From Quinella sp. 1Q5 (GTDB lineage: Bacteria; Bacillota; Negativicutes; Selenomonadales; Selenomonadaceae), in assembly GCA_014764605.1 (NCBI GenBank), contig JACXWG010000001.1, positions 1 through 62,332 of the forward strand: 62,332 nucleotides of DNA, given 5' to 3'. A program made the position numbers and the translations under genes. The stretch's first letter is position 1, and the number at the start of each line of letters is the position of its first letter. Below are positions 12,311-16,428 of the stretch, one piece after another. The notes under the pieces are model-generated. The model ran no database searches and was not told the origin of the DNA. It saw nothing but the letters and a program-made list of their open reading frames with translations.

Positions 12311-13944
12311 AGCAACTCCTCCCAACGCAAATAAAGTTCGTCAATCTCCGCGAGCTTATCGACGTGCGCCGTCGCCAATGCCGTCAACTTGTCTGGCTCG
12401 ACTGCTCCGTTTATCTCGTGCTCAATCATCTTTAATTCCATCTCCGCCATTTTTATTTGCGCCTCGACTTTGTTTAGTGCTTGCTCGTTCGGTTTAGGCG
12501 CGGAAGATTTCTTCTTGTCGCCTTTAATCTTGTCGTCCTTTAGTGGTTTAGGCTCTGTTGTCTCGGCGAATTCTATTATTCGCGTCGCCACTTTGTCAAG
12601 CAAGTATCGGTCGTGCGTGACGATTAGGATTGTCCCGTCGAAGTCTTGCAACGCTGATTCGATTGCCTCCCGTGCGGGCAAGTCCAGATGATTGGTCGGC
12701 TCGTCTAGGATTAGGAAGTTTGCCCCCGTCAAGATTAGTTTCGTTAGTGCGACGCGTGTTTTTTCTCCTCCCGATAAATCAGCGATGGGTTTCTCGACAA
12801 CTTGCGCGAACAAATTCAATCTTGCCAGCTCCGAACGTGCTTGACCTTCCGTCAATCCGAATTCGTTGTTAAGTTCCTCAAGCGGCGTTGCGTTCTCGTT
12901 AAGTTCCTTGTGCCCCTGCGACAGGTACCCGACCTTGACGCGATTGCCGATTTTAATTTCGCCGCTGTCAGCTTTAAGCTCGCCGACGATAAGTTTTAGC
13001 AATGTAGATTTGCCGACGCCGTTTCGACCAATTAAGCCGACCTTTTCCCCTTTGAACAGTTCCGCGCTGAAGTCTCGGATTATCTCTTTGAAGTTGACGC
13101 CCTCCAGAATCAAAACGCGATTAGCGGACTCTGAAGCGTCTCCTAGTCTGATTGTCGATTGCTCTGTTGACGGCGGCTTTTCCAGGCGTTGCATACGGTC
13201 AAGCAGTGTTTGTCGCCCGCGAGCCTGCTTAGCCTTGACGCCTGCCTTATTGCGCCTGACGAACTCTTCAAGCTTGCTAATCTCTTCCTGCTGCCGTTCG
13301 TAGGCTTTAAGCTCCGCCGCGTGTCGTTCCCGCTTAAGCTGAACAAACTTTTCGTAGTTGCCGGGGTAAAGCGTCGCCCGCCCGCCTTCCATGTCCAAAA
13401 TCTTTCCGACGCACTGTTGAAGGAAATGTCTATCGTGCGTGACGGCAATGACTGTTCCGCGATAATTCTTGACGAACTCTTCAAGGAACTCAATCGAGTA
13501 AATGTCCAGATGATTTGTCGGCTCGTCTAGGATTAGGATACGCGGTTCGTTGAGGAGTGCCTTAGCCAAAGAAATCTTTGCTGACTCGCCGCCGCTGAAG
13601 TGATTCGGACTCTTTGCAAGCTCTGGTTCAGTGAAACCTAGCCCGAATAAAATTTTCCGCGCTTGGAACTTCTCGACGCCTTCGACCGTCAACATTTCGT
13701 CTAGGAGCGTCGCGGCAGTGAATCGGGGCGTCTGTTCGACAAAGCCAATGTCCTCTGCCCTTAGCCCGCTGATTGTCCCCGCGTCGAAGGGTTCCGCGCC
13801 AATCATAATCTTAACCAACGTGGACTTGCCTGCGCCGTTCTTACCGACGATGCCGACATGTTCCCCGTCAACAATCTTGAAGGTTACGTCGCGGAAGATG
13901 AGCCGCTCGCCGTAATACTTTTTAACGTTATCAAGTTGAATCAT
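12304..13944 (-). CDS. ABC-F family ATPase (two ABC domains, no TM; translation-factor type)
   Basis: Two Walker A motifs (GKNGAGKST, GRNGVGKST), two LSGGE signatures, a charged interdomain linker and a C-terminal coiled coil. Confidence 0.9.
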   Translation of the reverse strand: MIQLDNVKKYYGERLIFRDVTFKIVDGEHVGIVGKNGAGKSTLVKIMIGAEPFDAGTISGLRAEDIGFVEQTPRFTAATLLDEMLTVEGVEKFQARKILFGLGFTEPELAKSPNHFSGGESAKISLAKALLNEPRILILDEPTNHLDIYSIEFLEEFVKNYRGTVIAVTHDRHFLQQCVGKILDMEGGRATLYPGNYEKFVQLKRERHAAELKAYERQQEEISKLEEFVRRNKAGVKAKQARGRQTLLDRMQRLEKPPSTEQSTIRLGDASESANRVLILEGVNFKEIIRDFSAELFKGEKVGLIGRNGVGKSTLLKLIVGELKADSGEIKIGNRVKVGYLSQGHKELNENATPLEELNNEFGLTEGQARSELARLNLFAQVVEKPIADLSGGEKTRVALTKLILTGANFLILDEPTNHLDLPAREAIESALQDFDGTILIVTHDRYLLDKVATRIIEFAETTEPKPLKDDKIKGDKKKSSAPKPNEQALNKVEAQIKMAEMELKMIEHEINGAVEPDKLTALATAHVDKLAEIDELYLRWEELLC

Positions 13945-13986
13945 TGCCTCGCCTCAAAAGTTTTTCTTGCATGATAGCAGAAAAGA

Positions 13987-14015
13987 AACGTCGCCGCAAA
14001 TTTTTATGCTATAAT
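13987..14015 (+). promoter_or_regulatory. Extended -10 promoter
   Basis: TGcTATAAT at 14007-14015. The -35 is weak. Confidence 0.35.
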
Positions 14016-14035: not shown

Positions 14036-14668
14036 ATGCGGAAAATATTTTTAATGCTGGTGTTCCTGATGATGTTGATGAGTTCGGCAAGCGCGGCGAC
14101 GATTGAGACGGCTTACTTTAACGGCAACGAGAAATTAGCTTATCCCGTCGTGACCACTGGAGACGAGGCGATTGACCAAAAGATTAACCGCAAGATTAAA
14201 GAAGAGCTTATGGGTTTTATCAAGGGCATTCACTACGACGCCCAATACTATGACCGCAAAGTCCTTGACGCCCGCACAATCTATGAGGTCGGCTCCAATC
14301 AGGCGGGCAACACGGTTATCCTAAGCATCGTCATGACCGAGAGCAAATACATTGAGGGCGCGGCGCACCCTGCGACTTGGAAACGCGTTTTGAACTTCAA
14401 CACGTCGAGTGGTAATCGCATGGGCTTAAATTACCTGACGGAGGTCGGCGAAGGCTTGAGGACAGGTTACCTCCTTGAACGCTTGGAGCAAAAGCTTCGT
14501 GAGAAAGTCAAGCGCGAGGGAATTTATCTTTTTGAAGAGGCCTTGCCGCTTAAGCAGTTGCCGGAGAATTTTTACTGGGACAAAAACTTACACGTGCATT
14601 TTATCTTCCAGCATTACGAGGTTGCACCATACGCGGCGGGGATAATCGACGTGGACATTGACGCCTAA
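14036..14668 (+). CDS. Secreted DUF3298/DUF4163-like protein
   Basis: Signal peptide ending SASA. The C-terminal ...YEVAPYAAGIIDVDI is typical of the DUF3298 fold as I recall it. Confidence 0.6.
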   Translation: MRKIFLMLVFLMMLMSSASAATIETAYFNGNEKLAYPVVTTGDEAIDQKINRKIKEELMGFIKGIHYDAQYYDRKVLDARTIYEVGSNQAGNTVILSIVMTESKYIEGAAHPATWKRVLNFNTSSGNRMGLNYLTEVGEGLRTGYLLERLEQKLREKVKREGIYLFEEALPLKQLPENFYWDKNLHVHFIFQHYEVAPYAAGIIDVDIDA

Positions 14669-14678
14669 GCAAAAGAAA

Positions 14679-14713
14679 AGAGCCGTTCGCGATTGAGCGG
14701 CTCTGATTTTTTT
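14679..14713. terminator. Bidirectional intrinsic terminator
   Basis: AGAGCCGTTC/GAGCGGCTCT stem. A T-run follows on the plus strand, and TTTTCTTTT follows on the minus strand. Confidence 0.7.
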
Positions 14714-14725
14714 GCAAAGCTTTAA

Positions 14726-14806
14726 TCAATAGATGTTGTGCTTAACGCGGTCGTGTTCTTCCGACTTCTTAGCGTCGTTCCAACGGTCTGTCGTGCCGAC
14801 CAGATA
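14726..14806 (-). CDS. Distal coding segment (26 codons) of the NrdD-like glycyl-radical mini-protein
   Basis: Translates to YLVGTTDRWNDAKKSEEHDRVKHNIY*. This continues the RRITG ending of the upstream ORF into the class III RNR glycyl-radical tail pattern G-Y-L-x-G...N-x-x-K-x-x-E...R-V-K-H. Confidence 0.5.
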   Translation of the reverse strand, partial: YLVGTTDRWNDAKKSEEHDRVKHNIY

Positions 14807-15051
14807 CATTTTGTTATCGCCGAGCTTTTTATCTCGACTTCTGCAAGTCGCCCTGCAGTTCAGCATATCTTTTCACGCATTGCCGCAAGCGTGGCGCGGT
14901 CTCGTGGGCAGATTATTTCACTGCCTATGCGTTGCGGCTGGCTTAAAGCCTTCACCTCTGATTATCTCAATGAGACTTCCCAGATTTTTACCGCGCTGAT
15001 AATCCGTCGTCTTCATGCGGCTTGACGGCGGACGGCTATCCTTTATCAGGC
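14807..15051 (-). other. 245-nt structured intervening sequence, candidate group I intron
   Basis: Preceded by U and ends in G. Nt 11-18 (GGAUAGCC) are complementary to the exon junction GGU|UAUCU. AAGAUAU followed by GCUG can pair with CAGC (P7-like). A-rich joiners flank the UCUG/CAGA and GUCUC/GAGAU helices. Several further hairpins are present. It contains no long ORF. Confidence 0.45.
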
Positions 15052-15255
15052 ACCTGTGATGCGGCGGATACGTTCAAACTTCTCGCCGCGTGCCGTGTAG
15101 CTGACATCAACCATACCGTCATCACACAGCTTAACATTAATCGTCTTTACCGGCATTGAGACCCGCCCGCGAACGTAAGCAACGTAATTGGCTGCCTCTT
15201 CGCGGGTGGCGTCGTCTATGCCAGCAAAGTTTACCTTAACGCCGTCAACAATCAT
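15046..15255 (-). CDS. Small protein ending in an NrdD-like RRITG glycyl-radical half-motif (proximal coding segment 15052-15255 plus 2 read-through codons)
   Basis: ATG lies 9 nt after GAGGAAG and immediately after the mscS stop. The ORF ends ...GEKFERIRRITG-A-stop. Confidence 0.7.
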   Translation of the reverse strand: MIVDGVKVNFAGIDDATREEAANYVAYVRGRVSMPVKTINVKLCDDGMVDVSYTARGEKFERIRRITGA

Positions 15256-15261
15256 AAGCAA

Positions 15262-16362
15262 TCACTTCCTCAAGTCAATTTTTGTATCATCAGGCAAATC
15301 AAGCGTGCGAATCGGGAACGGAATGTTAATGCCCTCTTCGCGATAACGCTTGGTAATCGCCTTAATGAATTCGTGCTTAAGAAGATACTGATTAGTAAAG
15401 GTTTGGACGTGCATAACCGCGTTGAAGTCAATCGACGAATCATTGAAAGCTTGATAGCGGACAACGGGCGCAAGTTTGTTCCTGTCGACGCCTTCGGAAT
15501 CAAAACGCGGTTCGTAGCCGTCAATCTTAATCTGAAGTTCGCGGGCAACTTCCACAGTCACGCGCTCCACTTGCTCAAGGTCGCTTTCATAACCGACGCC
15601 GATAGGAACGACAACGACAATATCATCGCGGGGTTGAGAGAAATTCGACGTAACGGCATTAGCGATAACCTTGTTAGGAATGACCACGACGCTACCTTCA
15701 TTAGCGGGCATGACCGTAATAAAACGCCAGTTGATGTCGATAACTTTGCCTTCGTCGCCGGTTGAAAGTTTAATGTAGTCGTTAACGCGCAGTTGCTTAG
15801 AAATGATGAGTTGCAATCCAGAGAAAATATTCTCCAAGGTCTCGCGAACACCGAAGGCAACCGCCATACCGCCGACACCCATTGCCGCCATAATCGGGGC
15901 TATCGAAATGTTGAAGTAATCCAGAATGACTAGCGCACCCGACGCATAAATTGCCACACGGAAAATCGTATCAAGTAGCGTCGATTGAGTCATATCGCTT
16001 GAGCCAGAAAACTTCATGCGGATAAAGCCCGATAACGTCCGCTCACAAACCCGCGTTATAGAAAAGACAATCATCGCGAACAAGACGTAGGAGAAAATCT
16101 TTTCGAGACCGGCGGGCATGTTGGAGGTCGTGACGCTCCAATAAAGCCCAATCACAATGCAAAGGTAAATCGGTACACCCTTCATCGCACGGAAGAAGAT
16201 TTCAAATATCTCCGAGTCGCTCGCCTTAACGCGTCCTTCCATTTTGCTTTGAATAAATCTGTTCAGCATTACGCCGAAACATAACGAGACGAACAATATA
16301 CACGCTGGGACAATGAGCTTTTCTCCCAATGCCAGCCAATCAATATTTTGAAGATAATCCAA
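15262..16362 (-). CDS. mscS: Mechanosensitive ion channel, MscS family
   Basis: TM helices followed by the conserved ...NIFSGLQLIISKQLRVNDYIKL...G.V.DI..R beta-domain. TTG start lies 6 nt after AAGAGGTG. The track's GTG at 16371 overlaps the RBS. Confidence 0.88.
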   Translation of the reverse strand: MDYLQNIDWLALGEKLIVPACILFVSLCFGVMLNRFIQSKMEGRVKASDSEIFEIFFRAMKGVPIYLCIVIGLYWSVTTSNMPAGLEKIFSYVLFAMIVFSITRVCERTLSGFIRMKFSGSSDMTQSTLLDTIFRVAIYASGALVILDYFNISIAPIMAAMGVGGMAVAFGVRETLENIFSGLQLIISKQLRVNDYIKLSTGDEGKVIDINWRFITVMPANEGSVVVIPNKVIANAVTSNFSQPRDDIVVVVPIGVGYESDLEQVERVTVEVARELQIKIDGYEPRFDSEGVDRNKLAPVVRYQAFNDSSIDFNAVMHVQTFTNQYLLKHEFIKAITKRYREEGINIPFPIRTLDLPDDTKIDLRK

Positions 16363-16428
16363 ACAAAACACCTCTTACTTGAAAAAAATTTTTACAGCCG
16401 ATATATTAAACGCAAGGAGTTGATAGAA

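Follow-up and report, generated by a model that had tools for sequence, protein, structure and literature searches.

The 62,332-nucleotide stretch of the genome of Quinella sp. 1Q5 analyzed here (contig JACXWG010000001.1 of assembly GCA_014764605.1, positions 1 to 62,332; hereafter the window) contains, a few nucleotides behind an mscS gene, a short minus-strand gene whose product resembles the radical-bearing end of NrdD, the anaerobic (class III) ribonucleotide reductase (RNR), and whose reading frame is interrupted directly behind the codon of the radical glycine. Two questions are raised by this locus: is the gene alive, and if so, which enzyme would a radical glycine without a catalytic chain serve? 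We predict that the gene probably encodes the obligate, trans-acting small subunit, carrying the radical, of a naturally split class III RNR.

When the two exons are joined, as read from the sequence and the list of open reading frames (ORFs), 68 + 26 codons give a protein of 94 amino acids (aa), here called the mini-protein. Its last ∼38 residues match the glycyl-radical C terminus of NrdD. The Pfam family NRDD (PF13597) matches at model positions 531 to 562 of 562 (E = 2e-8; 33.8 bits, with a cutoff of 26.2), the NrdD equivalogs NF011292, NF005497, and TIGR02487 of NCBIfam match over the last ∼40 positions (best E = 4.7e-14, with scores far under the whole-protein cutoffs, as expected for a fragment), and residues 704 to 738 of Prevotella copri NrdD (PDB 8p23) align to the tail (E = 9e-9). 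The radical domain of pyruvate formate-lyase (PFL) and GrcA, Gly_radical (PF01228), gave no match to the joined sequence even at E ≤ 10. The RxxGY context is restored at the exon junction (RRITG68-Y69; codon of G68, GGT at 15054-15052), and R64, R65, T67, G68, Y69, and L70 are invariant among 50 homologues.

The catalytic barrel with its finger-loop Cys is not on this chain, the barrel and the TMGCRTR motif being on a separate NrdD, and the Cys4 zinc ribbon (CGY...CPxC) is likewise carried by that large subunit. The single Cys of the mini-protein is C44 (codon 15124-15126, minus strand), which stands in a motif C-D/E-D-G and is invariant across 50 minis of the window clade; minis linked to RNR operons have another residue there (e.g., ISPAADGE). 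The earlier note on this DNA, made from the letters alone, had described just such a product: 68 plus 26 residues with an NrdD-type C terminus, one Cys, neither a barrel nor a CxxC...CxxC ribbon, and an ATG a few nucleotides past the mscS stop, served by a GAGGAAG ribosome binding site (RBS) in the mscS 3' end. The coordinates and profile matches bear this out, the gap between the stop and the ATG (15255-15253) being 6 nt (ttgctt), and the similarity to NrdD C termini, without which its reading would have failed, lies above the PF13597 cutoff. It had also stated that nrdD and nrdG are absent from the window, and neither was found there by tblastn with the NrdD and NrdG of Escherichia coli and Anaerovibrio or by a motif scan.

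The remaining N-terminal part forms a domain of its own. In an AlphaFold2 model built from a 50-sequence alignment, residues 1 to 56 adopt a beta-alpha-beta-beta fold (predicted local distance difference test [pLDDT], about 80 to 86; 79 to 86 over residues 1 to 50), and a Foldseek search of the model against PDB gave no match at E ≤ 0.001, leaving this domain without recognizable relatives.

Relatives of the mini gene are widespread. A scan of one genome per species gave at least 588 loci, in cultured Selenomonas, Mitsuokella multacida, Anaerovibrio, Pectinatus, and Megamonas, and in metagenome-assembled genomes (MAGs) of Schwartzia and Quinella as well as of some Ruminococcus, Oscillospiraceae, Lachnospiraceae, and Acholeplasmatales. 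The counts of genomic context given here refer to the best 80 of these loci, which were searched by tblastn with E. coli and Anaerovibrio NrdD and NrdG followed by ORF reading. A small ORF is present in 79 of the 80, the exception (L086) matching only the tail. Three arrangements were found. First, nrdD is directly followed by the mini gene at 17 loci, with nrdG immediately after it in 15 of them. Second, the mini gene is followed by nrdG at 21 loci, and nrdD does not lie within 10 kb. Third, the mini gene stands alone at 42 loci, which take in the whole window clade. Altogether, the mini gene neighbors nrdG at 38 loci; nrdG lies directly 3' of it at 36 and within 7 kb at one more. The window mini-protein has the same length and fold layout as the operon-linked minis and shares 45 to 50% identity with them over all 94 residues.

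The NrdD proteins adjoining a mini gene at the 17 loci (757 to 786 aa) are those of an enzyme without its radical site: they end in ...VCGYNGIIDNVCPRCGR followed by ∼20 aa and the stop (...NHPVDRDPVCGYNGIIDNVCPRCGR plus about 20 residues), with the zinc ribbon present and no RxxGY. The C terminus of the large subunit aligns to residues 629 to 705 of P. copri NrdD and the tail of the mini-protein to residues 704 to 738; since these alignments abut, large and small protein together cover the full-length enzyme. Of the 120 closest clusters to an Anaerovibrio large subunit, 88 are tail-less (738 to 783 aa) and 32 are fused forms of 777 or 778 aa that end in ...CPRCGRKENGRPFERIRRITGYLVGTIDRWNNAKRAEEHDRVKHGLG. 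Fused and split forms are about 77 to 80% identical in the catalytic part, which indicates that fission (or refusion) was recent. The tail of the window mini-protein is identical to that of a fused 778-aa Selenomonad NrdD at 29 of 37 positions (78%), and this homology to fused enzymes already implies where the tail would bind.

Two ways of obtaining one continuous protein from such adjoining genes were considered and rejected. Protein trans-splicing by a split intein does not fit on sequence inspection, as the extension of the large subunit is only ∼20 aa and the mini-protein has no intein C-terminal motifs. Frameshifting or read-through is ruled out because the mini gene has its own RBS, ATG, and 56-aa non-NrdD domain and because many genomes have the mini gene at a site apart from nrdD.

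The genome of the window does not lack a class III RNR, the absence of which would have counted against the earlier note: the annotation table of its Quinella bin lists an nrdD of 3264 nt (1087 aa) on NODE_87, where it adjoins neither a mini gene nor nrdG (PMC9585023). This NrdD, about 335 aa longer than the 752-aa relatives, was compared through its first 399 residues, for which the closest relatives are 85 to 91% identical and mostly fragments. Four of them with complete C termini (P0340, P0403, P0386, and P0342; 85 to 89% identical to the 399 residues) end in ...CPHCHRKEVETGxFxIKRxK and have no glycyl-radical tail; P0340 aligns to residues 158 to 706 of the 743 of P. copri NrdD and keeps the finger-loop motif TMGCRTR. 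RxxGY was present in the last 80 residues of none of the 120 matches to the N terminus of the window NrdD. We infer from these relatives that the NrdD of this genome is also tail-less. No second mini of the operon type was found in the ∼24 window-clade MAGs among the best 80 loci, and the window mini-protein is, judged by the same relatives, most likely the only source of a radical glycine for the NrdD of this organism.

The relatives are fragmentary because nrdD in the window clade is broken by introns and an intein. At L109 (5701-5960), an insertion of ∼260 nt separates WIHIH from DKDFSL; a U precedes its 5' junction, and its 3' end is G. Further breaks follow ...KRLFP and ...LCHDYLL (P0290, P0291, P0305, and P0340 are among the affected fragments), and in P0305 a LAGLIDADG intein follows NFNTLH.

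The earlier note had likened the mini-protein to GrcA/YfiD, proposing an autonomous radical module for an NrdD-like enzyme. The module stands, given the NrdD-type tail and the adjacency to nrdG and nrdD. The GrcA-style role, in which the cell has a complete, tailed NrdD and the mini-protein replaces the tail only after cleavage by oxygen, is unlikely. It would suit a small, autonomous protein with nothing but the radical motif, and it could draw on the fused 778-aa NrdD among close relatives, on the two minis of some genomes (the IJQ82 MAG; Selenomonas ruminantium bin.75, with L048 and L067), and on extra minis in phage- or plasmid-like sequence with no nrdD nearby. Nevertheless, every NrdD next to a mini gene ends after its zinc ribbon, as do all complete C termini of the window clade, including the nearest relatives of the window NrdD, and a spare part would have nothing to replace. 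In addition, the fused loci (L102 to L105) have no adjacent mini gene, and no genome was shown to have both a fused NrdD and a mini. The subunit model is thus better supported, and use as a spare part is possible in some genomes.

Whether the gene is alive depends on the 245-nt insertion. In the published annotation of the Quinella bin of the window, gene 15 is a 69-aa "ribonucleoside-triphosphate reductase" that ends in RRITGA* (Kumar et al. 2022, PMC9585023), and this product would be functionless if the insertion had broken a relic nrdD fragment. Such a dead gene would also agree with the failure of Rfam to detect a group I intron and with a P1 helix of just 3 exon pairs. It is scarcely credible, however, in the light of the homologues. 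Of the 120 best database matches, 98 are uninterrupted ∼95-aa proteins (92 to 99 aa) that read ...RRITGYLVGT... through the junction, the closest of them, from rumen Selenomonadaceae MAGs, being 94% identical. Another 20 are truncations of 68 to 78 aa that end just past RRITG and represent alleles interrupted at this position. In the window, exon 2 is intact, in frame once the insertion is precisely removed, and followed by a terminator. Ratios of nonsynonymous to synonymous change (pN/pS) in intron-bearing alleles are 0.20 in exon 1 and 0.12 in exon 2 (at a pS of about 0.6 to 0.7), against 0.29 and 0.26, respectively, in intron-less alleles. Intron-bearing alleles are therefore at least as constrained as intron-less ones, and exon 2 is still selected as coding sequence. 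Both exons are under purifying selection.

The insertion itself has the properties of a group I intron, predicted to be IA-like with a P7.1 hairpin, and this assignment is supported by covariation. Ten genome loci including the window have an intron at this exact site with intact exons. Short, ORF-less introns of 237 to 249 nt are found in the window and at L015, L018, L020, and L025, and longer introns of 560 to 725 nt at L021, L022, L024, L029, and L071; all end in G. The ORF in the intron of L022 (10205-10925) matches HNH_3 and, more weakly, NUMOD4. Occupation of the site by another type of intron, one with an HNH homing endonuclease, is hard to reconcile with a dead gene. The 5' end of the long introns (..GGTAGCCCGTCAAG..) resembles that of the short type, while their 3' core differs (..GAGACUG..GCCCCACGGGGC..CAGUCC..G).

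An internal guide sequence lies about 15 nt into the intron. Its GCC pairs with GGU of exon 1 (P1, with U.G at the splice site) and its GAUA with UAUC of exon 2 (P10), and it covaries with the last bases of exon 1 in relatives: exon/guide pairs are GGC/GCC and GGG/CCC (the latter in L020) in short introns and ACGGGU/GCCCGU, CAGGU/GCCUG, and CCGGU/GCCGG in long ones. The U.G pair at the 5' splice site is kept in 10 of 12 introns, and in the other two it is compensated as C-G and G-C; 85% of P10 cells are paired among the 12. A fold model built by hand on 12 aligned introns comprises P1, P10, P2, P3, P4, P5, P6, P6a, P7, P7.1, P8, P9, and P9.1. With the P3/P7 pseudoknot included, 96.6% of its cells are paired, compared to 30 to 39% with the partners slid; 19 pairs are changed on both sides (in P2, P4, P6, P6a, P7.1, and P9.1), and none of 500 shuffles reached the observed values. 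As no changes occur in P3, P7, P8, and P9, these helices are uninformative, and the support rests on P1, P2, P4, P6, P6a, P7.1, and P9.1. All 12 introns have G as their last base. The complete series of group I helices and the 19 covarying pairs also speak against a dead gene. Rfam RF00028 gave no match in the window at E ≤ 1 or in a long sister intron at E ≤ 10.

A metagenome scan with the conserved core recovered 12 further copies, 11 of them in the same gene at the same site, and the type-A intron core pattern had no match in viral contigs. The twelfth metagenome copy (L098, ∼13700-14010) has a different 5' context with no recognizable exon 1 within 200 nt, and its exon 2 is frameshifted, yielding ...RWNDAKQAEE only after a 1-nt correction. 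This copy may have degenerated, or it may represent a variant in which P1/P2 carries an insertion.

The tight linkage to mscS, which the earlier note had read as translational coupling, recurs: at 18 or more loci, with MscS identities of 59 to 87%, only 4 to 7 nt separate mscS from the mini gene behind it, and relatives show the same aGGAAGTGAttgcttATG arrangement at the GAGGAAG site. This linkage could be taken as a membrane or stress role in which the mini-protein serves something other than NrdD, as a decoy or regulator of an activase or as radical donor to a different enzyme. The window-clade mini gene never adjoins nrdD or nrdG, C44 is invariant in that clade and absent from operon-type minis, and the N-terminal domain has no recognizable relatives. 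We nevertheless consider such a role very improbable. The window mini-protein has the length and layout of the operon-linked minis and up to half of their residues, and the NrdD of its clade must get a radical glycine from somewhere. Further, an mscS gene lies ahead of nrdD whether the cluster is split or fused: the order is MscS, NrdD (752 aa), mini (94 aa), NrdG (168 aa) at L106 to L108, and MscS, fused NrdD (778 aa), NrdG, with no mini adjoining, at L102 to L105, where MscS is 46% identical to that of the window. The linkage is therefore inherited synteny, and the coupling is best read, from these gene orders, as a remnant left when nrdD departed from an ancestral mscS-nrdD-mini-nrdG cluster rather than as a functional link.

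Two variants of this neighborhood were seen. In a sub-branch of the window clade (L005/L016, 8879-9979), the mini gene follows, after a gap of 21 nt, not mscS but a gene for a 366-aa protein with weak methyltransferase-domain matches; an IS110-family fragment just upstream suggests rearrangement. Between mscS and the fused nrdD of L102 to L105 (7712-8000), the 13-nt motif CCACAATATGTAG occurs twice and may be a regulatory, possibly NrdR-like, box. The window has no NrdR box (pattern ACACWATATATWGTGT, up to 3 mismatches).

Several points weigh against a split enzyme in this organism. Neither the window, nor any locus of its clade, nor the portion of the genome table that was examined yielded an nrdG. 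Close fused forms of NrdD exist (the 32 tailed clusters of the nearest 120), and a fused copy could lie elsewhere in the genome. Some genomes have two minis, which would suit a spare or isoform role at least sometimes. The C terminus of the window's own NrdD is read from relatives with 85 to 91% identity. P1 of the window intron has only 3 exon base pairs. Finally, the tail is unstructured in the AlphaFold2 model of the mini-protein alone (pLDDT < 50), leaving it without a confident structure, as would be expected of a loop that folds only inside its partner.

Mini genes are also found on mobile and viral DNA. The second mini of one MAG (P0046; L110, 5001-5288) lies within a phage replication module, with a PD-(D/E)XK nuclease, an Enc34-type single-stranded DNA-binding protein, HU, PolA, ThyX, and a VapE-like primase as neighbors, and in an S. 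ruminantium MAG, ORF inspection places the second mini (L067) next to ParA- and ParB-like genes. Among viral contigs (IMG/VR), 428 encode a relative of the mini-protein, counts that are approximate, as such collections hold some host DNA. The best 80 of these loci (L112 to L191) contain 73 small ORFs; about 28 minis adjoin a tail-less NrdD, often with NrdG, and about 45 have neither NrdD nor NrdG within 10 kb. The phage mini may be an auxiliary gene that supplies the radical subunit only.

The following mechanism is proposed, in which we infer splicing in vivo, activation by NrdG, docking, radical transfer between subunits, and a benefit under oxygen stress. The mscS and mini genes would be cotranscribed, and the 245-nt intron would splice itself out, joining GGU to UAU and restoring the glycyl-radical motif RRITG-YLVGT. 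The N-terminal domain of ∼56 residues presumably docks the mini-protein onto the large subunit, and the flexible C-terminal tail would be the counterpart of the last ∼38 residues of an ordinary NrdD. The activase NrdG would place the radical on G68. The tail would then enter the barrel of the tail-less NrdD, whose gene lies at another genomic location, and a thiyl radical would form on the finger-loop Cys (TMGCRTR) across the subunit interface. Oxygen cleaves NrdD at the radical glycine, and here only a cheap protein of 10.8 kDa would be lost. Cheap replacement of the damaged mini-protein may explain why phages carry the mini gene alone. A broader reading, to which we give an even chance, is that two-component class III RNRs are widespread, that a tail-less catalytic subunit is served by an exchangeable "radical cartridge" of ∼94 aa which phages carry alone to re-arm or boost the host enzyme while they infect, and that the codon of the radical glycine is the homing site of two group I intron families.

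The features of the locus are collected in Table 1. The Pfam MS_channel domains were found in the syntenic mscS orthologue of locus L001, where the gene convergent with the mini gene in the window is absent. From its sequence, the hairpin between the two genes is likely a bidirectional terminator for the mscS-mini transcript and for the convergent gene.

Table 1. Features of the mscS-mini locus, in positions of the window
Feature	Position	Strand	Basis
mscS (MS_channel family), upstream gene; stop TGA at 15264-15262	15262..16371	-	ORF list
GAGGAAG, Shine-Dalgarno-like, 9 nt 5' of the ATG, overlapping the mscS end	15265..15271	-	Sequence read
Exon 1 of the mini gene, 68 codons, MIVDG...GEKFERIRRITG, ending in ...ERIRRITG	15052..15255	-	ORF list, sequence, homologue alignment
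Insertion of 245 nt, predicted ORF-less group I intron, directly 3' of the radical-glycine codon	14807..15051	-	12-sequence alignment and covariation
Internal guide sequence GAUAGCC	15034..15040	-	Alignment and pairing model
Exon 2 of the mini gene, 26 codons, YLVGTTDRWNDAKKSEEHDRVKHNIY + stop; rest of the glycyl-radical loop and C-terminal helix region	14726..14806	-	Sequence, PDB match
GC-rich hairpin with T-runs on both strands	14679..14704	both	Terminator scan and sequence
Convergent neighbor, 210-aa secreted or lipoprotein-like protein with PdaC and DUF3298 domains	14036-14668	+	Pfam

To our knowledge, all characterized glycyl radical enzymes have the radical glycine on the active-site chain, the PFL repair protein GrcA being the only known exception. 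If the two-component reading is true, this would be the first glycyl radical enzyme with its cofactor natively on another polypeptide. A literature search turned up neither a split class III RNR nor an NrdD spare part, subscription-only papers lying outside it. A review of June 2026 names the formate lyases as the sole class of glycyl radical enzymes with known spare-part proteins (PMC13450708), and interruption of phage nrdD by introns or inteins is on record, though not as a native two-subunit enzyme (PMC3653736). A split RNR is known in class II, as NrdJa/NrdJb of Pseudomonas aeruginosa (PMC4520616).

A native split, if true, would offer a clean means of investigating access of the activase to the glycine loop, would show entry and exit of the loop at the barrel and the hand-over of a glycyl radical across a subunit interface, and would permit a direct test of whether a small, replaceable, oxygen-sensitive part helps aerotolerant rumen and oral anaerobes. 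Phage-borne stand-alone minis would then be a new kind of auxiliary metabolic gene. It would also affect annotation: the 94-aa minis and the ∼752-aa NrdD proteins without a radical site are now annotated as whole enzymes or hypothetical proteins (cultured 94-aa minis are "anaerobic ribonucleoside-triphosphate reductase" in RefSeq and "uncharacterized" in UniProt), and intron-bearing alleles are called as truncations of 68 to 78 aa.

Among known systems, the closest is the tail of canonical NrdD (phage T4, PDB 1h78; P. copri, 8p23; E. coli), with which the mini-protein shares the RxxGY-type motif and the segment that follows it (RRITGYLVGTTDRWNDAKKSEEHDRVKH in the window and QRITGYLVGTTDRWNSGKLAELHDRVTH in P. 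copri) and, presumably, NrdG as activase and the insertion site in the barrel. Unlike in canonical NrdD, the tail is a separate 94-aa chain with an added N-terminal domain of ∼56 residues, and the zinc ribbon is on a large subunit that ends about at the position of the glycine. Like GrcA/YfiD, the mini-protein is a small stand-alone glycyl-radical protein in need of a large barrel enzyme in trans, and its family also occurs in phages; T4 reportedly encodes a YfiD homologue. In contrast to GrcA/YfiD, it has no PF01228 sequence relation, and whereas the partner of GrcA, PFL, has a radical domain of its own, the partner NrdD has none, as seen in relatives.

The intron resembles the phage-type group I introns of RNR genes (T4 nrdD/sunY and nrdB; SPbeta bnrdE and bnrdF; IA, P7.1/P7.2) in its U.G splice site, a guide that pairs with both exons, the terminal G, a P3-P9 core with pseudoknot, a hairpin between P7 and P3', and sister introns with an HNH_3/NUMOD4 endonuclease ORF. 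Unlike these, it is of a type that RF00028 does not match, is very compact (237 to 249 nt in the core variants), and interrupts a 94-aa gene exactly behind its radical-glycine codon.

The class II NrdJa/NrdJb pair and the class Ia NrdA-a/NrdA-b of Aeromonas phage Aeh1 ("genes in pieces") are similar in that two consecutive ORFs tile a full-length RNR, fused and split relatives coexist, and mobile elements (homing endonucleases) play a part in these genes. They differ from the present case, which is of class III, where the split parts the radical cofactor from the active site and where the small piece can be unlinked or phage-borne. As a functional analogy only, the mini-protein may be compared to R2 (NrdB) of class I RNR: there is no homology, and the radical is glycyl rather than a tyrosyl or metal cofactor, but in both cases a radical would be formed and stored on one polypeptide and delivered to the catalytic Cys of another.

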